IMG/VR virus record: IMGVR_UViG_2627853983_000003
Length of the DNA: 44,347 nucleotides
Reading direction: 5' to 3' (one strand)
Source of the DNA: a virus
Lineage: Duplodnaviria > Heunggongvirae > Uroviricota > Caudoviricetes
Shown here: positions 8,477 to 35,379 of the stretch, piece after piece
Position numbering within the stretch: position 1 is the first letter of the stretch
How the letters are laid out: each line of letters opens with the position of its first letter
Notes under the pieces: model-generated
What the model saw: only the letters and a program-made list of their open reading frames with translations
Database searches by the model: none
What the model was told of the DNA's origin: nothing
Program-made: the position numbers and the translations under genes

Positions 8477-8505
8477 CCTTCTGCTCGAAATAACAGGAGA
8501 GTTTT

Positions 8506-9143: not shown

Positions 9144-9165
9144 AAGCACGGTGTTCGGGGGTTTT

Positions 9166-10128: not shown

Positions 10129-10134
10129 CGTGTC

Positions 10135-10881: not shown

Positions 10882-10902
10882 TTTTGTCCGGAGGAAATTT
10901 TA

Positions 10903-11673: not shown

Positions 11674-11688
11674 TTGCCGGAGGCGCTT

Positions 11689-12114
11689 ATGGCAAAAGTA
11701 TTTACACAAGAAGAGCGGGAAAAAATTAAAGGGCAGGTTGTTGAACTTGTACGTCTGAGCGGTCGCGAGACGTTGCGGCAACTGGAAGCCAAGACAGGTG
11801 CGACAAGATATCTGATGAGTGTTCTCGCCAGAGAGCTGGTTGCCAGTGGCGATGTATACAACTCTGGTTACGGGTTATTCCCGTCTGAACAGGCGCGTAA
11901 GGACTGGCAAAATGCTCGCAAAAAACTCTCAAGGGCAAAGGTGAAGAAACCTGCAGTGGTTGATCCGGACCTTATCTGGTCGTTACCAGACGGCGAAATA
12001 CGCCGCTACGACAGGCGCCTGAATATAATCTGTCGCGAGTGCCGGAAGAGCGAAGCTATGCAGCGTGTACTGGCATTTTATCAAGGAAATGTTAGGTATT
12101 TTAGACGTTACTAG
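11689..12114 (+). CDS. Hypothetical protein (141 aa)
   Basis: Seen: ATG at 11689 with GGAGG Shine-Dalgarno; the ORF-track start at 11674 is upstream and in frame. Basic C-terminus with one CxxC; no family recognised. Confidence 0.45.
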   Translation: MAKVFTQEEREKIKGQVVELVRLSGRETLRQLEAKTGATRYLMSVLARELVASGDVYNSGYGLFPSEQARKDWQNARKKLSRAKVKKPAVVDPDLIWSLPDGEIRRYDRRLNIICRECRKSEAMQRVLAFYQGNVRYFRRY

Positions 12115-12267
12115 ATTAAAGAGCATTAGTTCAGATGTGAATTGACATTTTCATGGCGCAGGGTAGAGCCAGCGTGGTTGTCCGCTTTGCGTCAAAACCA
12201 GATATTACCAGATTTAGACATATATTCCCGATAGCCCTGCTCTGATGCTACACTCTGTGCTATTTTC

Positions 12268-12954
12268 ATGACCCCAATAAAAATATTTATGACTATTGCT
12301 GATTTCAAACGGCCTAAATTGGAGCTCCCAAACGGGGCAAACAAACTACTACTGCACTCTTGCTGTGCTCCATGTTCCGGTGAAGTGATGGAGGCGCTTC
12401 AGGCCTCGGGAATCGACTACACCATCTTTTTCTACAACCCGAACATTCATCCTCAGAAAGAGTATTTAATTCGTAAGGATGAAAATATTCGCTTTGCTGA
12501 ACAACACGGCGTGCCGTTTATCGATGCTGATTACGACACCGACAACTGGTTTGAACGTGCCAAAGGAATGGAATGGGAGCCTGAGAGGGGGATCCGTTGT
12601 ACCATGTGTTTTGACATGCGTTTTGAGCGGACAGCGTTGTACGCTGCTGAAAATGGTTTCAGTGTGATCAGCAGTTCACTGGGCATTTCACGCTGGAAAA
12701 ATATGCAGCAGGTTAACGAGTGTGGGCGGCGAGCTGTTGCGCATTATCCGGGTATGGTGTACTGGGATTATAACTGGCGCAAGCAGGGCGGCTCGTCCCG
12801 TATGATTGAAATCAGCAAGCGCGAAAAATTCTATCAGCAGGAATATTGTGGCTGTGTGTATTCTCTGCGCGATACCAATCTACACCGCAAATCTCAGGGA
12901 CGCCCTCTTATCAAAATTGGCCAACTCCACTACGGAAAAGAAGAGAAGGAGTGA
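12268..12954 (+). CDS. queH: QueH-like protein (DUF208 family; putative epoxyqueuosine reductase), moron
   Basis: Seen: N-terminal [11 protein letters not shown] motif that I recall as the hallmark of QueH/DUF208 Fe-S enzymes, plus further conserved Cys (CTMC, CGC). Preceded by a 150-bp ORF-free region with TTGACA-like hexamers, suggesting its own promoter. Assignment is motif-based only. Confidence 0.55.
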
Positions 12955-13079
12955 TTTTATGGATCACCTTTCTGATTGATTTCATATTGGCGAGGTGACG
13001 TGAGTTAAGTAGAATGGCTGCGGGTGCTTGAGGCTATCTGTCTCAGGCATGAACACTGAAAGGCAGATAGAGAAAAGCC

Positions 13080-13150
13080 CCAGTTAACATTTCGCGTCCT
13101 GCAAGACGCTTAACATTAATCTGAGGCCCAATCTATGTCTCACAAATGTA
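13080..13150 (-). ncRNA. Putative Sok-like antisense RNA of the hok/mok locus
   Basis: Inference from locus architecture: hok loci carry a short antisense RNA across the mok translation start. Seen: candidate minus-strand promoter (TTGCCT-17-TAACCT) around 13155-13185 firing across the mok start. Boundaries are approximate. Confidence 0.3.
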
Positions 13151-13191
13151 GGTTAGCCTCTTACGTGCCGAAAGGCAAGGGGAAGCAGGCT

Positions 13192-13347
13192 ATGAAGCAG
13201 CAAAAGGCGATGTTAATCGCCCTGATCGTCATCTGTTTAACCGTCATAGTGACGGCACTGGTAACGAGGAAAGACCTCTGCGAGGTACGACTCCGAACCG
13301 GCCAGACGGAGGTCGCTGTCTTCACAGCTTACGAACCTGAGGAGTAA
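13192..13347 (+). CDS. hok: Hok-family type I toxin (51 aa); the in-frame upstream extension from ATG 13135 is the mok reading frame
   Basis: Seen: MKQQKAMLIALIVICLTVIVTALVTRKDLCEVRLRTGQTEVAVFTAYEPEE, a Hok/Gef-family sequence as I recall it; the 70-codon mok-like ORF (13135-13347) contains it in the same frame. Confidence 0.8.
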   Translation: MKQQKAMLIALIVICLTVIVTALVTRKDLCEVRLRTGQTEVAVFTAYEPEE

Positions 13348-13415
13348 GAGACCCGGCGGGGGAGAAATCCCTCGCCACCTCTGATGTGTCAGGCATCCTC
13401 AACGCACCCGCACTT

Positions 13416-13447
13416 AACCCGGTTCGGCGGGTTTTGTTTTTTTCTGG
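13416..13447 (+). terminator. Intrinsic terminator of the hok mRNA
   Basis: Seen: AACCCGgttcggCGGGTT hairpin followed by TTTGTTTTTTT. Confidence 0.5.
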
Positions 13448-13514
13448 CATTCTGGTTTACAATTCGCACGTCAGCCTGAACACCTGACACCTGCTGCGCC
13501 AGCAGAGAAAACAG

Positions 13515-13787
13515 ATGGCGCACAAAACCAAATTTCACAATTCTGATACCGACCTTGCCATCCGGCATGGGCGGCGTTCACACGCATTTAAAACCGACTG
13601 GTACCAACACCCACCATGTACTGAAGAACAGGCCGAATGGCTAATTCATAACTACCGCAGACGCGGATACGAGATTAAGAAAGCCCTCAGCCTCGATTAT
13701 CGTCACTGGATAATCTCCGTCAGGCTTCCTTACTCTGAACGCCCACCGCGTCCGTCCCGCACATTCCAGCAACGCATCTGGAGGTAA
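13515..13787 (+). CDS. Hypothetical small basic protein (sits where Qin has rem)
   Basis: Seen: 90-aa ORF between hok and the YdfU-like gene with a weak Shine-Dalgarno; no family recognised. Confidence 0.4.
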   Translation: MAHKTKFHNSDTDLAIRHGRRSHAFKTDWYQHPPCTEEQAEWLIHNYRRRGYEIKKALSLDYRHWIISVRLPYSERPPRPSRTFQQRIWR

Positions 13788-13788
13788 C

Positions 13789-14844
13789 GTGCGGGTATTA
13801 CTTCGACCTGTTCTGGTACCGGAACTCGGGCTGGTGATCGTTAAGCCGGGCCGTGAATCCATGCCGGTATTCCACAATACCCGGGTACTGGTGGAGCCGG
13901 AACCGAAAAGCATGCGTAATCTGCCGTCCGGGGTCGTTCCTGCCGTTCGCCAGCCGCTGGCGGAGGATAAATCATTACTGCCATTTTTCAGCGACGAACG
14001 AGTGATTCGTGCTGCTGGTGGCGCTGGCGCATTGTCTGACTGGTTACTGCGCCATGTTAAATCCTGCCAGTGGCCACACGGCGATTATCACCACAGTGAA
14101 ACCGTCATTCACCGTTATGGTACCGGCGCAATGGTGTTGTGCTGGCACTGCGACAACCAGCTGCGCGACCAGACCTCCGAATCACTCGGGCAACTTGCTC
14201 ACCAAAACCTGTTTGCATGGATGATTGACGTCATACGCCATGCAATGAATGGCTCGCAGGAACGGGAATTATCGCTGGCTGAATTATCCTGGTGGGCGGT
14301 CCGCAATCAGGTGGCGGACGCGCTACCGGAAGCGGTATTACGTCGTTCGCTGGGGTTGCGTGCGGAAAAAATCCGCTCAATGTACCGTGAAAGCGACATC
14401 GTACCGGGAGAGCAGACCGCCACCAGCATACTGAAGCAGCGCACAAAAAATCTTGCGCCGCTGCCTCACGCCCACCAGCAAAACCCGCCACAGGAAAAGA
14501 CGGTGGTCAGCATTGCCGTTGATCCGGAGTCACCGGCTCAGTATCTCCAGCGCCAGAAATCACAACGGGAAGAGATGCCTGTATACACGCGTTGGGTAAA
14601 AACGCAGAAATGCATGACGTGTGGCAATCAGGCAGATGATCCGCATCACATCATTGGTCATGGACTGGGAGGGATGGGAACAAAGGCTGATGATTTGTTT
14701 GTTATTCCGCTGTGCCGTAAATGCCATAGCGAACTACACGCCGGGGTAAAAGATTTTGAAGAAAAACACGGCAGCCAGCTGTTGTTGCTGATTCGTTTTT
14801 TAATGCACGCGAGAAATTCGGGTGTTCTGAAGTGGAAAGCATAA
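13789..14844 (+). CDS. YdfU-like protein (DUF968 family) with C-terminal HNH-like Cys/His cluster
   Basis: Seen: 351 aa starting MRVLLRPVLVPELGLV..., matching my recollection of K-12 Qin YdfU; C-terminal CMTCGNQADDPHHIIGHGLGG...CRKCHSELH. GTG start with GGAGG Shine-Dalgarno. Confidence 0.7.
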   Translation: MRVLLRPVLVPELGLVIVKPGRESMPVFHNTRVLVEPEPKSMRNLPSGVVPAVRQPLAEDKSLLPFFSDERVIRAAGGAGALSDWLLRHVKSCQWPHGDYHHSETVIHRYGTGAMVLCWHCDNQLRDQTSESLGQLAHQNLFAWMIDVIRHAMNGSQERELSLAELSWWAVRNQVADALPEAVLRRSLGLRAEKIRSMYRESDIVPGEQTATSILKQRTKNLAPLPHAHQQNPPQEKTVVSIAVDPESPAQYLQRQKSQREEMPVYTRWVKTQKCMTCGNQADDPHHIIGHGLGGMGTKADDLFVIPLCRKCHSELHAGVKDFEEKHGSQLLLLIRFLMHARNSGVLKWKA

Positions 14845-15225
14845 ATGACTGAACGCATAGAATTTGTTTTGCCTTACCCGCCAACGGTGAACACTTACTG
14901 GCGTCGTCGTGGCAGCACATATTTTGTATCAAAAGCCGGGGAGCGTTATCGCCGGGCAGTGGCGCTTATTGTTCGCCAGCAGCGGCTGAAATTAAGCCTG
15001 TCCGGAAGGTTGGCAATAAAAATTATTGCAGAACCACCGGATAAGCGCCGCCGTGATCTGGACAATATTCTGAAAGCGCCGCTGGATGCGCTGACGCATG
15101 CGGGGTTGCTAATGGACGATGAGCAGTTTGATGAAATCAATATCGTTCGTGGTCAGCCAGTATCTGGTGGACGTCTGGGGGTGAAGATTTACCCCATAAT
15201 GCATGAAGAGCAGGTCAAAAAATGA
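14845..15225 (+). CDS. rusA: RusA Holliday-junction resolvase
   Basis: Seen: 126 aa with PDKRRRDLDNILKAPLDALTHAGLLMDDEQF, consistent with the RusA family; directly upstream of Q. Confidence 0.85.
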   Translation: MTERIEFVLPYPPTVNTYWRRRGSTYFVSKAGERYRRAVALIVRQQRLKLSLSGRLAIKIIAEPPDKRRRDLDNILKAPLDALTHAGLLMDDEQFDEINIVRGQPVSGGRLGVKIYPIMHEEQVKK

Positions 15226-16043
15226 AACTGGAAGATTTACCGAAATACTACTCCCCAAAATCCCCCGGCCTGACTGATGCATCGGCCTCAACGTCGAAAG
15301 ATGCGCTGAGTATCACTGATGTGATGGCCGCGCAGGGCATGACACAGAATCGGGCTGAGATGGGGTTTTCTGCGTTCCTGGGGAAAATGGGCATCAGTAT
15401 GAATGACAGGGCGCGGGCAACAGAATTACTGGCAGATTATGCACTCAGTCGGTGCGATCGTGTGGCGGCGTTGAGAAAACTTCCGGCAGAAATAAAACCG
15501 GTAGTGATGCGCATTATGGCTTCGTACGCTTTTGAGGATTATGCCCGCAGCGCAGCGAGTAAAAAGCAGTGCCCCTGTTGCCGAGGGGAAAAATTTATTG
15601 AAGGCGAAGTTTTTACAAACAAGGTTCAGTATCCGGATGGCAAGCCGCCAGTATGGGCAAAGTGTACGAAAGGTGTGTATCCGTCTTACTGGGAAGAATG
15701 GAAAAAAATTCGGGAGGTGGTGAAAGTTTCTTGTCCTGAATGTAAAGGGAAGGGGGAGATTTCCACTGCCTGTAAAGACTGCCGTGGGCGTGGTGTCGCC
15801 ATTCATCGTGAAGAGTCGGTAAAACGTGGTATGCCTGTTATCAGAGACTGCCAGCGTTGTGGTGGTCGTGGCTGTGAAAGACTACCATCAACGGAGGCAT
15901 TTAATGCCATATGCAAAGTGACGAGTGCTATCACGCTTGATACGTGGAAAAAATCAGTGAAACGCTTTTACGATACGTTGGTGGTTCGGTTTGACATTGA
16001 AGAGGCATGGGCGGAGCGGCAGTTAAAGAGGGTAACGCGATAG
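15222..16043 (+). CDS. Late-gene antiterminator Q (zinc-ribbon-rich, QuuQ-like)
   Basis: Seen: 273 aa with several CxxC pairs (CPCCRGEKF, CPECKGKGE, CKDCRGRG, CQRCGGRG); overlaps the rusA stop and is followed by a promoter and terminator arrangement. The N-terminus resembles my recollection of K-12 QuuQ. Confidence 0.75.
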   Translation: MKLEDLPKYYSPKSPGLTDASASTSKDALSITDVMAAQGMTQNRAEMGFSAFLGKMGISMNDRARATELLADYALSRCDRVAALRKLPAEIKPVVMRIMASYAFEDYARSAASKKQCPCCRGEKFIEGEVFTNKVQYPDGKPPVWAKCTKGVYPSYWEEWKKIREVVKVSCPECKGKGEISTACKDCRGRGVAIHREESVKRGMPVIRDCQRCGGRGCERLPSTEAFNAICKVTSAITLDTWKKSVKRFYDTLVVRFDIEEAWAERQLKRVTR

Positions 16044-16124
16044 TGTTGTTGATTTTTCCCGAATCTGTGGTAAATTTGCTCTAACGATGGGCGTTTTATG
16101 CCTGACGTTAGAAGATTTTTTACA

Positions 16125-16148
16125 CCCCGCCGCCTGGCGGGTTTTTTA
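16125..16148 (+). terminator. tR'-like intrinsic terminator downstream of a putative late promoter
   Basis: Seen: CCCGCCgcctGGCGGG hairpin followed by TTTTTT, about 80 bp after the Q stop. A candidate extended -10 (TGgTAAATT) lies at about 16070-16078. Inference: the late promoter/terminator pair on which Q acts. Confidence 0.55.
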
Positions 16149-16269
16149 TGACTGAAATCGCGTCAGTACAGTAAACGCGCTGGTGGCGGTGAATACCTGT
16201 CTTTCAGCTTGCTGGCTTTTTCGACAAGAGTTATTGGTGTGTCACGTTAACCGGAAAAGGGAAAAAGAC

Positions 16270-16467
16270 ATGCTGAAACAGCAGGATATGACAGAAACCG
16301 CCAGAGTGGTGTTTAATGAATTAAGCGTCACCGAACCGGCGACAGCCGGGGAGATTGCGCAGAATACTTACCTTTCACGCGAACGCTGCCAGTTAATACT
16401 GACCCAGCTGGTTATGGCGGGTCTGGCAGACTATCAGTTCGGTTGTTACAGACGCCTTCCGCAGTGA
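16270..16467 (+). CDS. Small HTH-like hypothetical protein (65 aa)
   Basis: Seen: ATG at 16270 with AAGGGA Shine-Dalgarno; MLKQQDMTETARVVFNELSVTEPATAGEIAQNTYLSRERCQLILTQLVMAGLADYQ resembles a winged-helix fold. The ORF-track start at 16183 is upstream and in frame. Confidence 0.4.
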   Translation: MLKQQDMTETARVVFNELSVTEPATAGEIAQNTYLSRERCQLILTQLVMAGLADYQFGCYRRLPQ

Positions 16468-16618
16468 AGGCTTTTTTATTTGTGGTAAATGGGCGGCTGG
16501 TGGGTGTTAGGGGCACCCACCAGCCATCTGCTCATGCGTTGGGGTCACAAGCAAACCTCAGGCCCATCTGCTTTGCGCAAAAGCGGTATGAGCCTATCAG
16601 AGAAGTGCTTATTGATCT

Positions 16619-17668
16619 ATGGCTAATACTGTAAAAATATCCAGTTGTGAGTTAATCAACGCCGACTGCCTGGAATTTATCCGGTCGTTACCCGAAAATT
16701 CTGTTGACCTGATAGTCACGGACCCGCCGTACTTTAAAGTGAAGCCTGAGGGCTGGGATAACCAGTGGAAGGGCGACGATGATTACCTGAAGTGGCTGGA
16801 CCAGTGTCTGGCGCAGTTCTGGCGGGTGCTGAAACCTGCCGGAAGTCTTTACCTGTTCTGTGGTCATCGCCTGGCATCTGATATCGAAATCATGATGCGT
16901 GAACGCTTCAGTGTGCTGAACCATATTATCTGGGCGAAGCCGTCCGGACGCTGGAACGGATGCAACAAGGAAAGCCTGCGGGCGTATTTCCCCGCCACAG
17001 AGCGCATTCTGTTCGCGGAACATTATCAGGGGCCGTATCGTCCGAAAGATGCCGGGTATGCGGCGAAGGGCAGTGCACTGAAACAGCATGTGATGGCCCC
17101 GCTGATTTCTTACTTTCGTGATGCGCGCGCGGCCCTGGGGATAACGGCAAAACAGATTGCAGATGCCACAGGAAAGAAAAACATGGTGTCGCACTGGTTC
17201 AGTGCCAGTCAGTGGCAGCTACCGAACGAAAGCGATTATCTGAAATTACAGTCGCTGTTTGCCCGGGTGGCAGAAGAGAAACATCAGCGCGGTGAACTGG
17301 AAAAGCCCCACCACCAGCTGGTGGATACGTATACGTCACTGAACCGGCAGTATGTGGAGCTGCAGAGTGAATATAAGCATCTGCGGCGGTATTTTGGTGT
17401 GACGGCGCAGGTGCCGTACACGGATGTGTGGACACATAAACCGGTGCAGTTCTATCCCGGGAAACATCCGTGCGAAAAACCGGCAGAAATGCTGCAGCAG
17501 ATAATCAGCGCAAGCAGTCGTCCGGGTGACCTGGTTGCAGATTTTTTTATGGGCTCAGGTTCAACGGTAAAAGCGGCACTGGCGCTCGGGCGTCGTGCGA
17601 TTGGCGTTGAGCTGGAGACCGGACGTTTTGAGCAGACAGTCAGGGAAGTTCAGGGTTTAATCGTTTGA
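16619..17668 (+). CDS. DNA methyltransferase (N6-adenine or N4-cytosine; beta-class motif order), orphan
   Basis: Seen: motif IV DPPY (LIVTDPPYF) near the N-terminus and motif I (FFMGSGST) near the C-terminus, the permuted order of beta-class amino-MTases. No restriction endonuclease gene adjacent. Confidence 0.85.
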   Translation: MANTVKISSCELINADCLEFIRSLPENSVDLIVTDPPYFKVKPEGWDNQWKGDDDYLKWLDQCLAQFWRVLKPAGSLYLFCGHRLASDIEIMMRERFSVLNHIIWAKPSGRWNGCNKESLRAYFPATERILFAEHYQGPYRPKDAGYAAKGSALKQHVMAPLISYFRDARAALGITAKQIADATGKKNMVSHWFSASQWQLPNESDYLKLQSLFARVAEEKHQRGELEKPHHQLVDTYTSLNRQYVELQSEYKHLRRYFGVTAQVPYTDVWTHKPVQFYPGKHPCEKPAEMLQQIISASSRPGDLVADFFMGSGSTVKAALALGRRAIGVELETGRFEQTVREVQGLIV

Positions 17669-17716
17669 AACGGATGAGATTGCAGAATTAATTACGCACC
17701 ATTATTATTCTGCTCC

Positions 17717-17792
17717 CGGCCCTTTAGCTCAGTGGTGAGAGCGAGCGACTCATAATCGCCAGGTCGCTGGTTCAAATCCAGCAAGGGCCACC
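17717..17792 (+). tRNA. tRNA with CAU anticodon (Met, or Ile2 if lysidine-modified)
   Basis: Seen: hand-folded cloverleaf with 7-bp acceptor stem GGCCCTT/AAGGGCC, D-arm GCTC-AGTGGTGA-GAGC, anticodon loop CTCATAA (anticodon CAT), T-arm GCTGG-TTCAAAT-CCAGC, encoded CCA. Confidence 0.85.
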
Positions 17793-17893
17793 ATCACAAA
17801 CCGCCATTAGCTTATCAGGAAGAGCAGACGACACGATAACAGGGTTGTTGGTGCGGGGGCGGGTCCCCGATGGCGGTCCATTATCGGTATTCA

Positions 17894-17970
17894 GCGTTGT
17901 TAGCTCAGCCGGACAGAGCAATTGCCTTCTAAGCAATCGGTCACTGGTTCGAATCCAGTACAGCGCGCCA
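17894..17970 (+). tRNA. tRNA-Arg (anticodon UCU)
   Basis: Seen: hand-folded cloverleaf with acceptor GCGTTGT/ACAGCGC (one G-U pair), anticodon arm ATTGC-CTTCTAA-GCAAT (anticodon TCT), T-arm ACTGG-TTCGAAT-CCAGT, encoded CCA. Confidence 0.85.
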
Positions 17971-18107
17971 TATTCATTCTTCCAGATTCCTTCCGGCAGA
18001 GCCTTATACTGAAATATACCTGGCTCAGGATATTGTTGAAAATATTATATGTTTGTCAAAAATAAAAGTTCTGTTAAGTGTTGATTGAGTGTTTGTTATA
18101 CGGTCTA

Positions 18108-18434
18108 ATGGTTTTTTCAGCATTAAATATTTATCATTCATATGGTGTGGGTAGAGTGAATATTGATGAGGCGTCGGGGTGTTTCATCCTTAGGCAGCGT
18201 ATTGATATAGTCAATGCAGCACGAGCAAAGGCCTTCAGCCGTTTGACAGTTTTGTTCTGTACTCCTGATCGTCTTTCGGGAAGAGACGTTATTATTCTGA
18301 ATAGTGATGCTATACAGAGGGTTTGCGATGAGTTCATGGTGGCTAATTCAGAATTATTTACTCTTGTTCAGGAGTACAACAGAATAGCCAGGACCTGTGG
18401 TATGGATGAACTTCGGATTACTCATCTGGGGTAG
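18108..18434 (+). CDS. Hypothetical protein in the AT-rich cargo island (about 108 aa from the first ATG)
   Basis: Seen: ORF in the low-GC region at the stx position; start uncertain (ORF track begins at a GTG at 18078, first ATG near 18108, no clear Shine-Dalgarno). No family recognised. Confidence 0.3.
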   Translation: MVFSALNIYHSYGVGRVNIDEASGCFILRQRIDIVNAARAKAFSRLTVLFCTPDRLSGRDVIILNSDAIQRVCDEFMVANSELFTLVQEYNRIARTCGMDELRITHLG

Positions 18435-18825
18435 ATACATATCTGGATTATCACCGGTTACGGTAAAAAGTGATTGCTTACTGTTTTTGTGAATGGCATT
18501 GCTGCAGCCGGATAATGTCAGTGCTGGCTGACGGTGTGCTGGTGGCGGGTGTGGTGGTTGTTGCTTTCCCGTTGCTGAAAAAGAAAACGCCAGACTGTTA
18601 GCCGGGTATCAGTTAGCGGGAGAAATTTTTAAATACTTCACAATTCAGGCGGTTGATTGTTGTCTGGTTTGCGGGGAGTTTGTTAAAAGAAACTGGCATG
18701 GTGAATCCCCCTGTGCGGAGGGGCAATCAGCGAGTAGGTATATGGGATAATCGCGGATTCAGGTGCTGGTACTGAATTCACCGGGAGGCACCCGGCACCA
18801 TGCAATGGCACATAGCGCCACTCTC

Positions 18826-18854
18826 CAGCCCCTCTCCGGAGGGGCTGTTTATAT
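18826..18854 (+). terminator. Intrinsic terminator inside the cargo island
   Basis: Seen: CAGCCCCTC-tccg-GAGGGGCTG 9-bp stem followed by TTTATATTGATTTT. Confidence 0.5.
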
Positions 18855-18881
18855 TGATTTTGTCAGATGTGAGTAAACTCC

Positions 18882-19217
18882 TTATGGACTTTGTTGTTTT
18901 AGTCCATAAGGACATATTTGCAGAGTGCAACGGTTATTAAAGCATTCATTCAATACGTTATCTGTATTTGTAGGGCATTCCTGGCTGTTTTTGATTAAAT
19001 TCCAGAATGTTTTATTGAATGGTACTACGTTGTAAATGGTTACAGGTAGCACTTTGTTATTGAGCATGATGCCTGTGTGAGTCAGTGTAAATATACTTTC
19101 AGGAGGTAAGAAAGCATCCGATTGATACCAGATTATTAATTTTATTTTACTCCATATGACTGAAAAAGATATTCCGCATGATGGCTGGATAACTGTATCA
19201 ATCACAATCCACTTCAT
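18882..19217 (-). CDS. Hypothetical Cys-containing protein (111 aa), reverse-oriented low-GC moron
   Basis: Seen: ATG at 19217 preceded by AGGAAA Shine-Dalgarno; AT-rich upstream region (19220-19460) with promoter-like hexamers. Oriented against late transcription; about 33% GC versus about 50% for the prophage backbone. No family recognised. Confidence 0.4.
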
Positions 19218-19477
19218 TTAGTTTCCTTGTTTATGCCTTGCTGGTGATGTTCTGAAAAGTATAAATGATATTTTTGATTGTAAACCATAGAGCAGAATTA
19301 TTTTTCTGATGTTGTTTATTGTTTATTTAAATGCAGGGTGGTTTATATCTCGTCTTGTAGTTTATCCATGCATATCTGCTTGATGATGAGGTTTTTATTT
19401 AAGGTATGGTTTTGTGTTTTTTCTGTATTACATGTCAGGTATTTTAAAGAATCATTTTTCAGATGGTGGAAAGAACC

Positions 19478-21331
19478 ATGGCATTTAAACACTATGATGT
19501 TGTCAGGGCGGCGTCGCCGTCAGATCTTGCGGAAAAGCTGACACATAAACTGAAAGAGGGCTGGCAGCCGTTTGGTAGTCCGGTGGCCATAACCCCTTAT
19601 ACCCTGATGCAGGCGATTGCAGCAGAAGGTGATGTGGTCGTCAGTGGTGCAACTGAGCCGGAGTGGTACTACGTCATCGTACTGGCCGGGCAATCCAATG
19701 CCATGGCTTACGGTGAAGGGCTTCCGCTTCCGGATTCATACGATGCGCCCCATCCGCGCATTAAGCAACTGGCCCGTCGTAACACAGTGACTCCCGGTGG
19801 TGAAGTATGCGTATTTAACGACATCATTCCTGCTGACCATTGTCTGCATGATGTTCAGGATATGAGTACGATTAACCATCCCCGGGCTGACCTGAGCAAA
19901 GGGCAGTACGGCTGTGTCGGACAGGGCTTACATATTGCCAAAAAACTGCTTCCGTATATCCCTAATAATGCGGGGATCCTGCTGGTACCATGCTGTCGTG
20001 GTGGTTCGGCATTCACCCAGGGCACGGAGGGGACATTCAGCGAGTCCACGGGGGCCAGTCAGGATTCGGCTCGCTGGGGAGTGGGTAAGCCGTTATATCA
20101 GGATCTGCTTTTCCGCACGAAGGCAGCATTGCAGAAAAACCCGAAAAACGTTTTGCTGGCGATATGCTGGATGCAGGGGGAATTCGATATGACGAATGCC
20201 AGTTACGCCCAGCAGCCAGCAGCATTTCTTGCAATGGTACAGCAGTTCCGTGCTGACCTTGCCGGGCTGGCGGCGCAGTGTCACGGTGGAAGTCCGGCAT
20301 CAGTCCCCTGGATTTGTGGCGACACGACATACGCGTGGAAACAAGAACACGGTACGCAATATGAAGTGGTATATGGTGCATATAAAGGTAAAGAATCCCA
20401 GCAGATTTATTTTGTTCCCTTTATGACCGATGGTAGCGGAGTTAATACACCGACAAACAACCCGTCAGAAGATCCTGATATTGCCGGGTCTGGTTATTAC
20501 GGTTCGGCATCCCGAACGAACAAAAACTGGGTATCATCAAATCGCCCGACGCATTTCAGCTCATGGGCGCGTCGTGGCATTATTCCCGATCGTATGGCAA
20601 CTGCTATTCTGAACGTAGCCGGTCGCACCTTAGCCTTCATTAGTGGTAAGGCACCGGAAATCAAACCCTCGCCCGGCGGCGACACGCCATCGGGGCCGTC
20701 TGAAGATGCATCCGTACGCACAATCTCCCTGTTGCCGACAGCCGGAGATGCTGCTGCGCAGGGCTGGAGCATTAAGAATGGCGGAATTCAGTTGTCAGAT
20801 GGTGTATTTAAGATCACCAAGCAGAGCAATAAAGCCTGGTCCCTGACGCGCCCGGTGGATGACGCAGTCTCCCTGCTGACACGGGGTGGCAGACTGAGCT
20901 GTAAGTTTCGACTGTCAGGCGCACTGACCAACAATCAGTTCGGTCTGGGAATTTATCTGTATACCGATGTAGCGTTACCTGACGTCGTGGCGATGACCGG
21001 GACTGGTAACCCGTTCCTGATGTCGTTCTTCACCCAGACCACAGACGGCAAACTGAATCTGATGCATCACAAGAAAGCAGGAAACACAAAGTTGGGCGAG
21101 TTCGGGAATTACAGTAACGACTGGCAGACGCTGGAGCTGGTGTTCACCGCCGGCAGTGCCACGGTTACTCCGAAACTGAATGGAGTGGCTGGCCCGGCAT
21201 TCCAGGTCATAAAAGACAGTCTGACACTGGGGCTGAATGCGCTGACGCTGACGGATATTACCAAAAATGCAACGTATGGCGTTGAGATAGAAAGTCTGGT
21301 GCTGGAGATAAATGCACCGGCATCATCATAA
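19478..21331 (+). CDS. nanS: Prophage sialate O-acetylesterase NanS-p (N-terminal DUF1737, SGNH-type esterase domain)
   Basis: Seen: N-terminus MAFKHYDVVRAASPSDLAEKL... and esterase motif VLAGQSNAMAY. Established: Stx and related lambdoid phages carry nanS-p between the stx position and the lysis genes. ATG at 19478 has a GGTGGA Shine-Dalgarno; 19463 is an alternative start. Confidence 0.8.
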   Translation: MAFKHYDVVRAASPSDLAEKLTHKLKEGWQPFGSPVAITPYTLMQAIAAEGDVVVSGATEPEWYYVIVLAGQSNAMAYGEGLPLPDSYDAPHPRIKQLARRNTVTPGGEVCVFNDIIPADHCLHDVQDMSTINHPRADLSKGQYGCVGQGLHIAKKLLPYIPNNAGILLVPCCRGGSAFTQGTEGTFSESTGASQDSARWGVGKPLYQDLLFRTKAALQKNPKNVLLAICWMQGEFDMTNASYAQQPAAFLAMVQQFRADLAGLAAQCHGGSPASVPWICGDTTYAWKQEHGTQYEVVYGAYKGKESQQIYFVPFMTDGSGVNTPTNNPSEDPDIAGSGYYGSASRTNKNWVSSNRPTHFSSWARRGIIPDRMATAILNVAGRTLAFISGKAPEIKPSPGGDTPSGPSEDASVRTISLLPTAGDAAAQGWSIKNGGIQLSDGVFKITKQSNKAWSLTRPVDDAVSLLTRGGRLSCKFRLSGALTNNQFGLGIYLYTDVALPDVVAMTGTGNPFLMSFFTQTTDGKLNLMHHKKAGNTKLGEFGNYSNDWQTLELVFTAGSATVTPKLNGVAGPAFQVIKDSLTLGLNALTLTDITKNATYGVEIESLVLEINAPASS

Positions 21332-21481
21332 AAAGTGAGCCAGTCAAATGGAAGGTATCGTTAAACTCACCGGTAGTGTCAGTGGGTCGTCTGAGATGCC
21401 TGCATGAGTTATCAGAGCCATCAGTACTTAACTGGTGGCTTTTTTTATTGTTGTCAGCTTCCGGATAACGGGAGACGGGGT

Positions 21482-21697
21482 ATGTACCAGATGGAAAAAA
21501 TCACAACAGGTGTGTCATACACCACGTCAGCGGTGGGAACGGGCTACTGGTTCCTGCAGTTGCTGGACAGGGTTTCCCCGTCTCAGTGGGCGGCAATAGG
21601 CGTGCTGGGGAGTCTGCTGTTTGGGCTGCTGACATATCTGACTAACCTGTATTTCAAAATCAGAGAGGACCGTCGTAAGGCGGCACGGGGAGAGTAA
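21482..21697 (+). CDS. Holin, phage-21 S-type pinholin with dual-start motif
   Basis: Seen: [71 protein letters not shown] closely resembles my recollection of the S21 pinholin; two in-frame Met codons at codons 1 and 4. Confidence 0.8.
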
Positions 21698-21701
21698 TTC
21701 A

Positions 21702-22046
21702 ATGACTCAAAACTATGAACTGATTGTGAAAGGGATCCGCAATTTTGAGAATAAAGTTACGGTAACTTTAGCGTTACGGGACAAAAAACGCTTTGACGGT
21801 GAAATTTTTGACCTGGACATCTCGCTGGACCGTGTTGAAGGTGCCGCGCTGGAGTTTTATGAGGCAGCAGCCAGAAGGAGCATCAGACAGGTCTTCCTGG
21901 ATGTTGCTGCCGGGTTATGTGAAGGGGATGAGCAGTCGCCGGAAAAGCGCCCCGTAATTTTAGAGGCGCAGGATGTGTTGATAACCTACAGAGGAAAACT
22001 ACCGGGAATAATTACGGGTTCTCTGAAGAGTCCGCCGAAATGGTAA
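21702..22046 (+). CDS. Hypothetical acidic protein between holin and endolysin (possibly YdfR-like)
   Basis: Seen: 114-aa ORF starting 5 nt after the holin stop with a G-rich Shine-Dalgarno. Inference: Qin carries ydfR in this slot, but I cannot confirm sequence identity from memory. Confidence 0.45.
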   Translation: MTQNYELIVKGIRNFENKVTVTLALRDKKRFDGEIFDLDISLDRVEGAALEFYEAAARRSIRQVFLDVAAGLCEGDEQSPEKRPVILEAQDVLITYRGKLPGIITGSLKSPPKW

Positions 22047-22284
22047 TTTTACCAGCATATTTTTCATCCAGTAATACAGCAAGCCGCCTGAAAGAGTCTT
22101 GTTGTTCCTGAGACCATTTGGGATTGCATGATTCAAACTGGATTGATGCCAGCGTTGATTGCATCTGTTCCCTTGGAATTGAGAATGCCAGATATGAGAA
22201 GGCGACGGTAAGGGTATTCACGTCTTCCCGAAGCCTGGAAATGCTGTCGAGCAACTCCTGTAGAGAAATGGTGTTATTGTCCAT
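22012..22284 (-). CDS. Hypothetical protein (90 aa) encoded antisense within the lysis cassette
   Basis: Seen: minus-strand ORF with GAGGA Shine-Dalgarno 7 nt before the ATG at 22284; its 3' end overlaps the 114-aa gene by 35 bp; inverted repeat CAGCCTG-N6-CAGGCTG about 40 bp upstream. No family recognised. Confidence 0.4.
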   Translation of the reverse strand: MDNNTISLQELLDSISRLREDVNTLTVAFSYLAFSIPREQMQSTLASIQFESCNPKWSQEQQDSFRRLAVLLDEKYAGKITISADSSENP

Positions 22285-22389
22285 AAATAATCCTCATGAT
22301 TGTATTGACCTGTTAGCAGCCTGAGGCAACAGGCTGGAACTGATAAACATATCCAGGGCTCAGAAACCGATAAATCCTGATAAATATCC

Positions 22390-22923
22390 ATGAACGCAAA
22401 AATCAGATACGGCCTGTCGGCTGCCGTTCTGGCGCTGATTGCCGCTGGTGCGCCTGCGCCTGACATTCTCGACCAGTTTCTGGATGAAAAGGAAGGTAAC
22501 CACACCACGGCATACCGTGATGGCGCGGGTATCTGGACCATCTGCCGCGGTGCCATCCTGGTGGATGGCAAACCTGTCGTTCCGGGCATGAAGTTGTCGA
22601 AGGAAAAATGCGACCGGGTTAACGCCATTGAGCGTGATAAGGCGCTGGCATGGGTGGAGAAAAACATCAAAGTGCCATTGACCGAACCCCAGAAAGCGGG
22701 GATCGCGTCATTCTGTCCGTACAACATTGGTCCCGGTAAGTGTTTCCCGTCGACGTTTTACAGACGAATTAATGCAGGTGATCGCAGGGGAGCATGCGAA
22801 GCGATTCGCTGGTGGATTAAGGACGGTGGCAGAGACTGCCGTATTCGCTCAAATAACTGTTACGGTCAGGTATTCCGTCGTGACCAGGAGAGCGCGCTGG
22901 CGTGCTGGGGAATCGACAGATAA
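22390..22923 (+). CDS. SAR endolysin (T4-lysozyme-like muramidase with N-terminal signal-anchor-release segment)
   Basis: Seen: Gly/Ala-rich weakly hydrophobic N-terminus (YGLSAAVLALIAAGAPA) followed by an E-x8-D-x5-T catalytic pattern (EGNHTTAYRDGAGIWT); pairs with the pinholin upstream. Confidence 0.85.
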   Translation: MNAKIRYGLSAAVLALIAAGAPAPDILDQFLDEKEGNHTTAYRDGAGIWTICRGAILVDGKPVVPGMKLSKEKCDRVNAIERDKALAWVEKNIKVPLTEPQKAGIASFCPYNIGPGKCFPSTFYRRINAGDRRGACEAIRWWIKDGGRDCRIRSNNCYGQVFRRDQESALACWGIDR

Positions 22924-23014
22924 GCAGAATATTTTGCTGAAAAATGAGGTTGGCCAACGCGGGCGGATAACACGAAGTCCTGTGAACTGGCAAAACCTAA
23001 GTGAATAAAAGTAA

Positions 23015-23052
23015 AAACCCCGTTTGTTGGCAGCAAGCGGGGTTTTGTTTTT
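23015..23052 (+). terminator. Intrinsic terminator downstream of the endolysin gene
   Basis: Seen: AAACCCCG...CGGGGTTT stem followed by TGTTTTT. Confidence 0.5.
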
Positions 23053-23117
23053 ATGGCAGTAAGCTATGGGAGGCTGCCTTGATTGATTTTAGCAAACTGA
23101 TTAGGGAGTTGCGACTC

Positions 23118-23213
23118 ATGATTAGTCAATTACCAAACTGGAAATTTTTGCTGGTCTGGAGCATCCCTTTTTTATGGGTAGTATCCCAGTTAATTGTGGC
23201 AATTAAGGGGTAG
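23118..23213 (+). CDS. Mini-ORF 1 (31 aa), predicted single-pass membrane peptide
   Basis: Seen: MISQLPNWKFLLVWSIPFLWVVSQLIVAIKG with GGGAG Shine-Dalgarno 11 nt upstream; its stop is 2 nt before the next ATG. Confidence 0.35.
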   Translation: MISQLPNWKFLLVWSIPFLWVVSQLIVAIKG

Positions 23214-23215
23214 CT

Positions 23216-23347
23216 ATGTCAGACAAACTCATAACGCCGGCAAAGGTCCTGTGTGTGATTGTCGGTATTTCATTTTCACTAATGCTGGTTGCTCTTTTTC
23301 TGTCCCTCGCCTGGGTGATGTTGTCTTCGTCGGGGCTGCTGGGGTGA
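23216..23347 (+). CDS. Mini-ORF 2 (43 aa), predicted membrane peptide
   Basis: Seen: MSDKLITPAKVLCVIVGISFSLMLVALFLSLAWVMLSSSGLLG with AAGGGG Shine-Dalgarno; its stop overlaps the next start (GTGA). Confidence 0.4.
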   Translation: MSDKLITPAKVLCVIVGISFSLMLVALFLSLAWVMLSSSGLLG

Positions 23348-23466
23348 CAGTGACTGATGACATCAGCAGAGCGCTGGCTTTTGCTATTAAGTGGGTGGCT
23401 GTTGGTATTGCTGTGTCTCCGATGCTGTATGGGCTGGCAAAACTGGTCATTGCGCTGAAATCGTGA
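23344..23466 (+). CDS. Mini-ORF 3 (40 aa, GTG start), predicted membrane peptide
   Basis: Seen: (M)TVTDDISRALAFAIKWVAVGIAVSPMLYGLAKLVIALKS, coupled to ORF 2 via GTGA overlap; shares the motif A-(L/M)-AFAI-(K/R)-x-VA-(V/I) with mini-ORF 4. Confidence 0.35.
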   Translation: MTVTDDISRALAFAIKWVAVGIAVSPMLYGLAKLVIALKS

Positions 23467-23477
23467 ACTTTAAAAAG

Positions 23478-23564
23478 ATGAGTGCTGAACTTATTCGGGC
23501 AATGGCATTTGCCATTCGTATTGTGGCCATTGCTGTTCTGGTCTGGGCAATCCGTTGGTGGTGA
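23478..23564 (+). CDS. Mini-ORF 4 (28 aa), predicted membrane peptide
   Basis: Seen: [28 protein letters not shown]; its stop is 1 nt before the Rz ATG. Confidence 0.35.
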
Positions 23565-23565
23565 T

Positions 23566-24060
23566 ATGAACCGTGTTCTGTGTGTGGTGATTATTGTCAT
23601 GCTGGTAGCCTGTGGTGTGCTTAGTCTGGGGCTGAATCATTACCGCGATAACGCCATCACCTACAAAGCGCAGCGCGATAAAAAAGTCAGTGAGCTGAAA
23701 CTGGCGAATGCCACTATTACTGACATGCAGCAGCGCCAGCGAGATGTCGCTGCGCTTGATGCCAGATACACGAAGGAATTAGCCGATGCGAGAGCTGAAA
23801 ATGAAACTCTGCGCGCTGATGTTGCCGCTGGTCGTAAGCGCCTGCGGGTCAACGCCACCTGCCCCGGTACCGTGCGTGAAGCCACCGGCACCTCCAGCGT
23901 GGATAATGCAACCGGCCCCCGACTGGCAGACACCGCTGAACGGGATTATTTCATCCTCAGAGAACGGTTGATGACAATGCAGAAGCAGCTGGAAGGGGCG
24001 CAGGAATATATCCGCACTCAGTGCACTAAGCTGGCTTTTTATTATCCGGAGGATACATGA
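23566..24060 (+). CDS. Rz i-spanin
   Basis: Seen: N-terminal TM segment ([23 protein letters not shown]), coiled-coil-like body, and an embedded +1-frame lipoprotein gene. The ORF-track start at 23482 is upstream and in frame. Confidence 0.8.
23801..23971 (+). CDS. Rz1 o-spanin (lipoprotein embedded in Rz in the +1 frame)
   Basis: Seen: [34 protein letters not shown]..., a lipobox (VVSAC) followed by a proline-rich sequence, entirely inside Rz. Confidence 0.7.
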
Positions 24061-24272
24061 AGAAATTACGGGTAACCGTAGAACCTTTTCAGGGAACAAT
24101 TCCGTTCCGTATTTTGCAGCGTGGTCGTGTTCTTGTTGAAGGTTCGTTCAGTGGTAAATGTACGCAATTACACTCCCGGACCTTTCAGGTGAATGCCACG
24201 AATGAAGAGCTAACCGTGGAGTGTACGATGAATGCCGCTAAATGCCGCATGGTATTACAGCCAGTGTGTTGA
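24057..24272 (+). CDS. Hypothetical protein (71 aa) translationally coupled to Rz
   Basis: Seen: ATG overlaps the Rz stop (ATGA) and has a GGAGG Shine-Dalgarno; no family recognised. Confidence 0.4.
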
Positions 24273-24470
24273 GCGACCTTATTATCCATGCGCGGTATTG
24301 TCGCCGTATTCCTGCATTAACAGAGACCGCAGCCCGACAGGGAGACTCCTCTGCGCGAGTGTGCGGGGATAATCAAAAACGATACACACCGGGGTTTACC
24401 GCGTTAACGGAGCGCGGCGTTGTCCCCTCATAGTCGCCTGTCCGGTGCGATGGTGGAAGAAACCGAACGT

Positions 24471-24671
24471 TCATTTCTCGTTATTTGTCATGCTGGCCGG
24501 GCGCAGATGCGTTGCATCTGTTGCCAGCCTTCTCCTGCAGGCTTCAATAACCCACGCTGAAAAGTTACCGGACCCTTTATGCTCAAGGGCGATGTTGATC
24601 TGTTCAATTATGTGATTGGGGAAACGGATATTGCGGGTTGTGGTTCTGCGGGTCCGGTTTTTCGATGACAT
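24471..24671 (-). CDS. Small ribbon-helix-helix-like protein (YlcI/YnfO-like, 66 aa)
   Basis: Seen: MSSKNRTRRTTTRNIRFPNHIIEQINIALEHKGSGNFSAWVIEACRRRL with AAGGA Shine-Dalgarno. Inference: resembles the small proteins found between lysis and terminase genes in DLP12/Qin; family assignment is from memory. Confidence 0.45.
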   Translation of the reverse strand: MSSKNRTRRTTTRNIRFPNHIIEQINIALEHKGSGNFSAWVIEACRRRLATDATHLRPASMTNNEK

Positions 24672-24712
24672 ATTTATTTCCTTTACTGATTGCCATATGA
24701 CGGGGATTTTAC

Positions 24713-33921: not shown

Positions 33922-34638
33922 ATGTCTGCTTTGTATGAACGCTCACAGCTGACGCAGGTGATGATTTCATCTGCCCCGGCGACTGCTGAAACTATGGATA
34001 AGGCGGAATATCTGCGCCTGGACTGCACCATCAAGGAAGTCCAGTTCACCGCTGGTCAGAAACAGGATATTGATGTGACCACGCTCTGCTCCACCGAGCA
34101 GGAGAACATCAACGGTCTGGGGGCGTCGTCTGAGATTTCCATGTCGGGTAATTTTTATCTGAATCAGGCCCAGAACGCCCTGCGTGATGCCTATGACAAT
34201 GACGCGTTGTATGCGTTTAAGGTGCTGTTTCCGTCCGGTAAGGGCTTTAAGTTCCTGGCGGAAGTGCGTCAGCACACCTGGTCATCCGGTACCAACGGCG
34301 TGGTGGCAGCAACGTTTTCACTGCGTATGAAAGGCAAACCGGTGTCCTTTGTGGTACCGCTGGCGTTTGTGAAAAATCTGGATAAAACACTTACCGTGAA
34401 TACAGGTGCGCTGCTGACAATGTCAGTCAGTGCCAACGGGGGAACGCCGCCGTATAAATACGCCTGGAAGAAGGATGGTCAGCCGGTTGACGGGCAGACG
34501 ACAGACACCTTCAGTAAGCCAGGTGCGCAGTCCGCTGATGCGGGGAAATATACCTGCGTGGTGACCGATTCGGCAGAGAAAGCACAGAGTGTGACGTCTG
34601 TTGAATGCACCGTGACAGTGAGCGCAGCCGCCGGATAA
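33922..34638 (+). CDS. Major tail protein with C-terminal Ig-like domain
   Basis: Seen: AGGAGG Shine-Dalgarno; C-terminal ~90 aa (TVNTGALLTMSVSANGGTPPYKYAWKKDGQPVDGQTTDTFSKPGAQSADAGKYTCVVTD) resemble Big_2-type Ig domains common on major tail proteins. A hairpin plus T-run (CCCGCCGCGTGCGGGTTTTTT) lies upstream. Confidence 0.75.
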   Translation: MSALYERSQLTQVMISSAPATAETMDKAEYLRLDCTIKEVQFTAGQKQDIDVTTLCSTEQENINGLGASSEISMSGNFYLNQAQNALRDAYDNDALYAFKVLFPSGKGFKFLAEVRQHTWSSGTNGVVAATFSLRMKGKPVSFVVPLAFVKNLDKTLTVNTGALLTMSVSANGGTPPYKYAWKKDGQPVDGQTTDTFSKPGAQSADAGKYTCVVTDSAEKAQSVTSVECTVTVSAAAG

Positions 34639-34652
34639 GGGGATGGGTCATC

Positions 34653-35027
34653 ATGAAAAAGGATCTGAAAACGCTGGCGCTGGCCAGACTGTCAGGGTTT
34701 CGTCATAAAACGGTGAAGGTGCCGGAATGGGGTAATGTCAGCGTGGTGCTGCGGGAGCCTTCGGCAGAGGCCTGGTATCTGTGGCAGGAAGTGCTCAATG
34801 GTGATGGAGAGGATGACGATACCCTGTCGGTGGTGGCGAAAACCCGCCGTAACCTAGAAGCGGATGTGACGCTGTTCTGCGATGTCCTGTGTGATACGGA
34901 TCTGCAGCGGGTGTTCGCTCCGGACGACCGTGAGCAGGTGCTGGCCGTCTATGGTCCGGTACATGCCCGGTTGCTGCGTCAGGCACTGGAACTGATCGCT
35001 GATGCAGAGTCGGCCAGAAAAAAGTAG
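34653..35027 (+). CDS. Tail assembly chaperone G
   Basis: Seen: ATG at 34653 with AAGGGGA Shine-Dalgarno; ends at a TAG immediately after the slippery heptamer A AAA AAG; located between the major tail and tape-measure genes. Confidence 0.7.
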   Translation: MKKDLKTLALARLSGFRHKTVKVPEWGNVSVVLREPSAEAWYLWQEVLNGDGEDDDTLSVVAKTRRNLEADVTLFCDVLCDTDLQRVFAPDDREQVLAVYGPVHARLLRQALELIADAESARKK

Positions 35028-35332: not shown

Positions 35333-35379
35333 ATGATGAGAACCGCTGAGGCGGTTTTTTTACGCCCGGAGAAAGGTGA

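Follow-up and report, generated by a model that had tools for sequence, protein, structure and literature searches.

Between the endolysin gene and the spanin gene Rz of a lambdoid prophage (IMG/VR record IMGVR_UViG_2627853983_000003, Caudoviricetes; its 44,347 nucleotides (nt) are called the window below) lie four short, chained open reading frames (ORF1 to ORF4) on the plus strand. It is very probable that these mini-ORFs are real, selected membrane-peptide genes, and the sequence evidence supports coding well for ORF3 and reasonably for ORF1, ORF2 and ORF4. The mini-genes belong to a mobile pool of modules that recombine at ORF borders, at the endolysin-Rz junction of P21-type lysis cassettes. 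As an overall explanation, late-expressed accessory mini-genes acting at lysis fit best, and this explanation is put forward tentatively.

The four chained mini-ORFs are present as the earlier, sequence-only reading described them, each with a transmembrane (TM)-like segment. The chance of such a cluster was assessed by counting plus-strand ORFs of at least 25 codons with a TM-like segment, in the region and in 5000 dinucleotide-preserving shuffles. The region holds five, namely the four mini-ORFs and one alternative-frame by-product; at least four were reached in 3 of the 5000 shuffles and five in none. No other 566-nt segment of the 44 kb, on either strand, holds three or more.

Homologous endolysin-Rz (R-Rz) spacers were drawn from annotated Escherichia coli genomes and phages, IMG/VR viral contigs and one Salmonella chromosome. 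The viral-contig homologs were the best 80 relatives, mostly identical copies, so that allele diversity is small for ORF1 and ORF4. The sequence-only reading had named missing conservation in homologous prophages as what would refute the frames, and a selection test as one check. The frames are kept, down to Salmonella, and in all four families the annotated frame has the lowest ratio of nonsynonymous to synonymous polymorphism (pN/pS) of the six. This ratio is 0.09 for ORF3 (n=14 alleles), 0.40 for ORF4 (n=7), 0.46 for ORF1 (n=5) and 0.55 for ORF2 (n=23). Eight distinct DNA alleles of ORF3 encode an identical peptide, and the helix differences between its E. coli and Salmonella copies are mostly synonymous. 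The selection signal of ORF2 is weaker than that of ORF3, with variable sites spread evenly across the three codon positions; internal stops were found in 0 of its 23 alleles.

Database membership points in the same direction. All four peptides fall into PHROG families (6632, 4906 and 1115/3246/4493), which are all function-less entries, and ORF2 to ORF4 are RefSeq hypothetical proteins in identical prophages. The deposited complete genome of phage PhiR5_1 (host given as E. coli C) also carries the array, its record annotating ORF1 to ORF3, and the array is found within an intact-looking prophage as well. The sequences are therefore already catalogued, and the remark in the sequence-only reading that the ORF track missed them does not apply generally.

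Several other frames in the region were considered and set aside. An antisense ORF of 123 amino acids (aa; 23229-23600, minus strand, across ORF2 to ORF4) has a higher pN/pS and is incompatible with module reshuffling, and a hydrophobic 33-aa alternative-frame ORF in ORF3 (23357-23458, plus strand) has a pN/pS of about 0.9. Both are open in many alleles. Purifying selection on either of them was not seen, and they seem to be a side effect of hydrophobic codon composition. Mechanically called ORFs of 70, 90 and 57 aa are merely ORF1, ORF3 and ORF4 in frame behind upstream alternative starts.

Table 1. The mini-ORFs and the other elements of the lysis cassette, with positions in the window.
Feature	Position	Strand	Remarks
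P21-type class II holin (pinholin), first cassette gene	21482-21697	+	Pfam PF04971 Phage_holin_2_1, E 9e-33; RefSeq 'class II holin family protein'
Endolysin (phage lysozyme)	22390-22923	+	Pfam PF00959, E 9e-24; RefSeq gene name rrrQ
Conserved non-coding segment right after the endolysin stop	22924-23013	+	Motif GGCGGATAACACGAAATCC; alignments E. coli to Salmonella
Intrinsic, apparently bidirectional terminator hairpin with T-run	23014-23052	+	Between endolysin and mini-ORFs
ORF1, phrog_6632 family	23079-23213	+	Preferred start TTG 23079 (44 aa); alternative start ATG 23118 (31 aa)
ORF2, phrog_4906 family	23216-23347	+	43 aa; Shine-Dalgarno sequence AAGGGG; PHROG E 4.5e-21
ORF3 (short form), phrog_1115/3246/4493 family	23344-23466	+	PHROG E 6.4e-25
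ORF4, short ORF3 paralog	23478-23564	+	28 aa, ends RWW; phrog_4493 E 3.8e-6
Rz (i-spanin), gene entered by the ORF chain	23566-24060	+	Pfam PF03245, E 4e-51
Rz1 (o-spanin lipoprotein), inside Rz in another frame	23786-23971	+	Pfam PF06085, E 1.7e-21

Each peptide is little more than one hydrophobic helix behind a short, mostly basic N-terminus, and this design probably places it in the inner membrane with the N-terminus inside. ORF lengths of 31, 43, 40 and 28 codons had been given in the sequence-only reading, and frames with these coordinates exist as read; the first length, however, probably falls short. The true start of ORF1 is probably TTG 23079, 13 codons earlier, which would give 44 aa. 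This start is preferred because it has a Shine-Dalgarno (SD) sequence, GGGAGG, 5 nt upstream, because the divergent homolog ORF1b (Escherichia sp. MOD1) has a GTG at the equivalent codon behind its own SD (AAGGAG), and because the 44-aa form matches phrog_6632 better (E 1.4e-13, profile positions 1-43 of 45) than the 31-aa form (E 6e-5). Between ORF1 and ORF1b, the N-terminal extension shows three conservative changes and one that is synonymous (AGG to CGG). The short form, 23118-23213, has the SD AGGGAG. ORF1 encodes one TM-like helix (LLVWSIPFLWVVSQLIVAI; best 19-aa Kyte-Doolittle window 2.19), has a GC content of 0.39 compared to 0.53 for the window, and is left unannotated in the identical RefSeq record.

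ORF2 (RefSeq WP_001280935.1) has a basic N-terminus (MSDKLITPAK) followed by a TM helix, with a best 19-aa Kyte-Doolittle window of 2.87. Its family comprises 103 protein clusters in a collection of 5.8 billion proteins; 42 of these are exactly 43 aa long, down to about 65% identity, and the named ones are all from E. coli. Substitutions between clusters are conservative and the Trp is nearly invariant. An origin of ORF2 as a duplicated TM segment of Rz was considered in view of a shared VLCV...MLVA...LSL pattern, and was rejected at a BLASTP E of 0.28 and an hhalign E of 0.27.

ORF3 could start at GTG 23344 (40 aa, with a GTGA overlap with the ORF2 stop) or at GTG 23350 (38 aa, 3 nt past the ORF2 stop and behind GGGG), and RefSeq annotates a 51-aa form in identical prophages; its best 19-aa window is 1.90. 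A long form of 60 aa (MGKYKRILLRLTMKNGLELKAPVTDD...) with a strongly basic N-terminus occurs in O157:H7, ATCC 25922 and Salmonella. Homology of the window copy to this long form begins at VTDD, the upstream part being replaced by the 3' end of ORF2, and its start is a former internal Val codon (GTG) of the long form. The ORF3 of the window is a 5'-shortened copy of the 60-aa gene.

ORF4 (RefSeq WP_032140280.1) has a weak SD and a best 19-aa window of 2.21. Its ATG is also kept in strain E70, in a 4-nt overlap with the ORF ahead of it. The suggestion that ORF3 and ORF4 share a motif and arose by duplication was borne out. The motif is present as RALAFAIKWVAV in one and as a matching 12-residue stretch in the other, hhalign aligns the two with a probability of 86% (E 4.8e-6), and they are linked by shared PHROG matches and by the natural intermediates P0214 and P0215. 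ORF4 is 11 residues shorter than ORF3 in the alignment, and the two are paralogs. Kinship of ORF1 with ORF4 (hhalign probability 42%) and of ORF2 with ORF3 (8%) was unsupported.

The chaining by overlapping or adjacent stop and start codons was described correctly for the GTGA overlap and for the end of the chain, where 1 nt separates the ORF4 stop from the Rz ATG (23566); ORF3 and ORF4, in contrast, are 11 nt apart unless ORF4 uses the alternative GTG 23463, which overlaps the ORF3 stop. The last codons of ORF4 (TGGTGGTGA) provide an SD-like sequence for Rz, as do the same codons of ORF1b, and the 3' end of ORF2 (GGGGTGA) similarly doubles as an Rz SD.

In other E. coli genomes, BLAST breakpoints coincide with ORF borders, at query positions 157 (ORF2 start), 288 (ORF2 end), 291 (ORF3 start) and 408 (ORF3 end). 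Eleven module orders were found among the distinct R-Rz spacers of Escherichia and Salmonella prophages. With 3L and 3s for the long and short forms of ORF3, 1b for ORF1b and ant for an antirepressor gene, these are 3L-2 (30 spacers), 1-2-3s-4 (25), 3L alone (7), 1-2 and 3L-4 (3 each), ant-1-2-3s-4 and 3L-2-3s-4 (2 each), and 3s-4, ant-1-2, ant-2 (933W type) and 3L-1b (once each). Some rules of order hold in the sampled spacers: ORF1 stands ahead of ORF2, the long ORF3 is the module next to the terminator, and ORF4 and ORF1b, whose peptides end in RWW, invariably close the array. Both ORF1 and full-length ORF3 are found ahead of a 2-3s-4 block.

The modules are common in E. coli. At least one is present in 1944-2068 of 5426 complete genomes (about 36-38%), at up to 12 places per genome, and the full four-gene array in 587-589 of them (about 11%). 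Carriers include Shiga toxin (Stx) phages, O157 prophages and ST131 prophages. Members of the ORF3/ORF4 superfamily turned up in Salmonella as well as in Escherichia, E. marmotae among them, and ORF2 in E. coli only. In Salmonella, the long ORF3 likewise lies between endolysin and Rz and follows the conserved segment and the terminator. Its cassette there has another holin (Phage_holin_2_3) and another endolysin, again of the signal-anchor-release (SAR) type. In K-12 Qin, rrrQ overlaps rzpQ and there is no insert, and in about 27 of 36 non-lambda loci examined from other Enterobacterales the endolysin gene abuts or overlaps Rz (gap -10 to +17 nt). Because endolysin and Rz adjoin in relatives without the insert, the arrays are a lineage-restricted accessory insert outside the core lysis machinery. 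Co-variation between the type of the last mini-ORF and the N-terminal helix of Rz was also considered; it amounted only to linkage, with no clear pattern.

Further observations concern the same slot in other strains. In strain E70 (locus L007, 1314-1466 and 1631-1780), two additional single-helix ORFs (50 and 49 aa), both unrelated, lie among the ORF3- and ORF4-type genes, so the module pool is larger than the three families of the window. The antirepressor gene lies upstream of the mini-ORFs in the R-Rz slot of some phages, including 933W-type Stx phages (L002 1790-2485, L008 790-1485 and L009 1217-1786), which places an antirepressor in the late operon. In two distant loci (L253 2708-2812, from Salmonella, and L312 2310-2504), the endolysin gene is overlapped at its 3' end by a small hydrophobic ORF with the shared motif GWGWF(L/V)(L/F)VG; this ORF may be a further mini-membrane-gene family of the cassette, and its sole PHROG match is weak (phrog_14810, E 0.003). 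In E. coli CNREC_004-43 (L011 1377-1782), the cassette that encodes an ORF4-like peptide (...AFAIRLVAIAVLILAVRWW) has another holin and, as endolysin, an M15 metallopeptidase. After the peptide come the first Rz codons (ATGAACCG), in frame with an annotated 63-aa ORF that has an LVGC motif, possibly a lipoprotein signal, and replaces the normal Rz; this junction could be recombinant or decayed.

The terminator that had been noted after the endolysin gene consists of a 15-bp stem, including 6 GC pairs, followed by a T-run (23014-23046), and its stem is maintained by compensatory changes across loci from E. coli to Salmonella. A scan for the sigma-70 consensus found no plus-strand promoter between terminator and ORFs, either in the window or in the O157 arrangement, where the first start codon follows the terminator at a distance of only about 40 nt; one promoter-like site on the minus strand is within chance expectation. 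An Rfam scan of the whole window at gathering scores found nothing in 22850-23650, a lenient scan gave chance-level matches only, and the conserved 90-nt segment ahead of the hairpin has no Rfam family match. Segment and hairpin together (22924-23052) are conserved in both E. coli and Salmonella, also behind endolysin genes of another type, and could be a small RNA derived from a 3' untranslated region or a regulatory or insulating element.

The conserved terminator upstream, the lack of a sigma-70-like promoter after it and the running of the chain into Rz all suggest that expression of the mini-ORFs is probably late, through Q antitermination, and shared with the spanins. They would be transcribed only by the Q-antiterminated, terminator-resistant late polymerase, along with holin, endolysin, Rz and Rz1, and would be translated as a coupled chain.

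By its Pfam matches, the cassette can be classed as a P21-type pinholin/SAR-endolysin/Rz-Rz1 cassette. The endolysin is considered to be SAR-type because of its weakly hydrophobic, Gly/Ala-rich N-terminus (GLSAAVLALIAAGAPAP), and the spacer between its gene and Rz measures 642 nt. Rz1 is left unannotated in the identical RefSeq record. In this setting, position and timing, and only these, point to non-essential inner-membrane modulation of pinholin/SAR-endolysin/spanin lysis as the likeliest job of the mini-peptides, an assignment that is more doubtful than not. At the time of lysis, the peptides would enter the inner membrane and adjust the lysis programme by helix-helix contacts, with pinholin triggering, the release of the membrane-tethered SAR endolysin and the i-spanin as candidate targets, while their translation would also feed ribosomes into Rz/Rz1. 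Late co-expression, the constant slot between SAR endolysin and i-spanin, the single-helix design with the N-terminus inside and the dispensability of the genes are the grounds for this proposal. The slot being kept in Salmonella, despite a different holin and endolysin, speaks in its favour.

A number of observations weigh against a lysis role, or against the genes as such. Purifying selection on ORF1, ORF2 and ORF4 is only moderate and comes from few alleles. ORF1 has a premature stop in one strain, ORF2 carries an 11-nt deletion in one spacer type, and the native start and N-terminus have been lost from the ORF3 of the window. The peptides are without homology to any holin, antiholin, releasin or spanin, and their variable copy number and order speak against a fixed stoichiometric partner. 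The promoter scan was limited to the sigma-70 consensus, which weak or novel elements could escape. Literature searches by accession, peptide string and topic also turned up no work on the mini-genes.

A rival explanation with some appeal, yet unlikely overall, is that the peptides are made in the lysogen and serve lysogenic conversion or superinfection exclusion, for instance by blocking the DNA entry of other phages or by altering a host membrane protein, and that the cassette is merely a convenient insertion slot. An accessory insert that is absent from many relatives and whose modules are shuffled like morons would suit such a use, as would the deviating GC content of ORF1, the antirepressor gene in the same slot and the presence of up to 12 copies in genomes with several lambdoid prophages. 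Like a moron, the insert separates genes that adjoin in relatives, in K-12 Qin and in the Enterobacterales loci mentioned above. The transcriptional layout argues the other way. A promoter upstream and a terminator downstream, as in a moron, are not found; instead, the terminator lies upstream, the ORFs are chained into Rz, and the stretch after the terminator, which in O157 is very short, has no sigma-70-like promoter. Furthermore, the PADLOC defence models gave 0 families at E up to 1.

It is also improbable that the products are membrane-damaging mini-toxins which, like holins or type I toxins, would depolarise the inner membrane and so aid pinholin triggering and SAR endolysin release. In phage 21 lysis, the pinholin/SAR system is triggered by depolarisation, a point of general knowledge that lends this idea some plausibility. 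At 28-44 aa (up to 60 aa with the long ORF3), with a single hydrophobic helix and 19-aa hydropathy values of 1.9-2.9, the peptides are within the range of type I toxins (<60 aa, hydrophobic) and resemble minimal holins, tandem paralogs are typical of type I toxin loci, and a neighbouring peptide in E70 faintly matches a holin PHROG (E 0.036). The sequence-only reading had likewise proposed small membrane toxins or antiholin-like modulators. Neither identity was met with in the family searches: Pfam, NCBIfam, PADLOC and Protein Data Bank (PDB) sequence searches gave no meaningful match for any of the four peptides, there was none to holin families (Pfam, NCBIfam and PHROGs annotated as holin), and none to an antiholin, a releasin or to Hok, Ldr, Ibs, ShoB and Zor. 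Nor was a type I antitoxin RNA detected, with no Rfam family at its gathering score and a lone antitoxin match to ohsC at 19.9 bits against a cut-off of 50. An own promoter, a long structured leader and an antitoxin small RNA were not found by the sigma-70 consensus scan and Rfam, which novel elements could escape, and the single antisense promoter-like site is no more than chance would give. The C-termini (KG, SSSGLLG, KS and RWW) are not the charged tails of holins, and many relatives that share the holin and endolysin do without the peptides.

Another account, also improbable, treats the mini-ORFs as cis-acting translated spacers, which carry ribosomes across the insert to the Rz/Rz1 start and whose peptides have little function themselves. 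The tight chaining of stop and start signals is in line with this, as is the distance of 1-12 nt that always separates Rz from the last ORF; the terminal codons of ORF4, ORF1b and ORF2 that double as an Rz SD, and the weak amino-acid constraint on ORF2, fit as well. ORF3 does not, being strongly constrained and kept between genera with many synonymous changes. The hydrophobic helix and a fixed length are also kept in all families, and a spacer function leaves unexplained why every module encodes a membrane helix.

A bolder reading, which deserves only slight credence, would see the R-Rz junction as a combinatorial, quickly reshuffled 'toolbox' of single-helix micro-proteins, used as weapons or shields in conflict between prophages. 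In E. coli strains with as many as a dozen lambdoid prophages, the peptides would bind the TM helices of pinholins, SAR domains or i-spanins and could in this way bring the lysis programme of resident or superinfecting relatives into step, take it over or block it; if true, this would explain variable copy number, order and allele with each helix under selection. Finally, non-functional recombination debris, that is, frames open by chance where mosaic pieces join, or an Rz leader that is not translated, has the truncated ORF3 joined to the ORF2 stop, the frameshifted or stopped copies in some prophages and the open alternative-frame and antisense ORFs in its favour, but is very improbable and already largely refuted by the shuffle test, the frame-specific pN/pS minimum in all four families, the conserved starts and SD sites, the cross-genus conservation and the PHROG families.

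The lysis cassettes of lambda and phage 21 are the textbook model of phage lysis by holin, endolysin and spanin, and natural relatives of these cassettes carry extra conserved single-helix membrane genes between endolysin and spanin. Not found described in searchable sources were a shuffled pool of single-helix micro-genes tied to the P21-type endolysin-Rz junction, the ORF3- and ORF4-type peptides as one superfamily, their purifying selection across genera, and the conserved terminator without a promoter upstream of the mini-genes; no published function for the modules was found in the searchable literature. A survey of Stx-phage cassettes and a census of spanins make no mention of the mini-ORFs, and the ribosome-profiling supplements for enterohaemorrhagic E. 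coli (EHEC) hold no relevant entry. As for the 933W homolog of ORF2, EDL933_1392, an EHEC translatome paper lists it in a PredictProtein property table only, where an inner-membrane helix is predicted for it (PMC4765031, supplementary file 1). If the modules tune lysis timing or endolysin release, the phage burst would be affected, as would toxin release in Stx phages, and the peptides would be a natural set of minimal TM-helix regulators. If they have no role in lysis, they would be a clean case of micro-gene modules hitch-hiking in a late operon.

As regards the prophage itself, the window matches a prophage of E. coli strain 4/1-1 at 100% identity in two stretches, 4001-24000 and 32001-40000, and at 99.97% or more in 24001-32000 between them. 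The first 4-kb bin has only about 66% identity, so that the left end and its annotation differ from the RefSeq prophage. Between holin and endolysin (21702-22284) lie a DUF1327/YdfR gene and a convergent 90-aa ORF on the minus strand without a family match, both further uncharacterised passengers of the cassette. The early region contains a hokD/sok type I toxin-antitoxin locus at 13022-13347 (Rfam sok, 120 bits; hokD annotated), which provided a comparison for the mini-ORFs within the same prophage. Other Rfam matches are C4 antisense RNA and isrK at 1430-1615 and DicF next to dicB at 6543-6594 on the minus strand; those on the plus strand are two tRNA genes (Ile, Arg) at 17718-17970 and, past the Q gene, STnc100 at 18667-18856.

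Compared to known systems, the mini-ORFs share features with several. The PHROG entries 6632, 4906, 1115, 3246 and 4493 give no function, context or mutual link, and split the ORF3- and ORF4-type paralogs over several families. Type I toxins such as Hok, Ldr, Ibs, ShoB and Zor are likewise shorter than 60 aa, with one hydrophobic helix, often in tandem paralogs and often prophage-borne, but they have their own promoter, structured leader and antisense RNA, none of which is detectable at the mini-ORFs, which sit in a coupled late-operon chain. Spanins differ in having a periplasmic domain or a lipobox, which the peptides lack. In phage 21, the antiholin S21 71 is an alternative-start product of the gene for the pinholin S21 68, and one transmembrane domain (TMD) restrains another. 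The cassette is of the same type, and TMD-on-TMD regulation is the kind of mechanism proposed here for the mini-peptides; in contrast to a dual-start antiholin, the mini-peptides have genes of their own, which lie beyond the endolysin gene and 1.4-1.9 kb past the holin gene, and they show no similarity to S21.

Accessory lysis proteins encoded by genes of their own offer further parallels. The lysA gene of phage P2 has the endolysin gene on one side and the spanin genes on the other, which is also the slot of the mini-ORFs. In phage P1, a set of small, non-essential membrane proteins (the holin-like LydA, LydC and LydD and the antiholin LydB) works with a SAR endolysin and adapts lysis to the host and the conditions (PMC9025707). 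The P1 Lyd proteins and P2 LysA differ from the mini-peptides in being larger, with 2-4 TMDs or charged tails, unrelated in sequence and not arranged in shuffled arrays of single-helix micro-ORFs. The releasin gp25 of phage Mu (DUF2730) has an N-terminal TMD and a cytoplasmic domain, whereas peptides of the window type, of 28-60 aa, are almost only helix and have no Pfam match; moreover, Mu has no holin, while the cassette of the window has a P21-type pinholin. The likeness lies in a small accessory membrane protein within a cassette that has a SAR endolysin and a two-component spanin, and gp25 acts on the membrane-tethered SAR endolysin from the inner membrane without making holes (PMC9239132). 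Thus, gp25 demonstrates that SAR systems do recruit extra single-TMD helpers.

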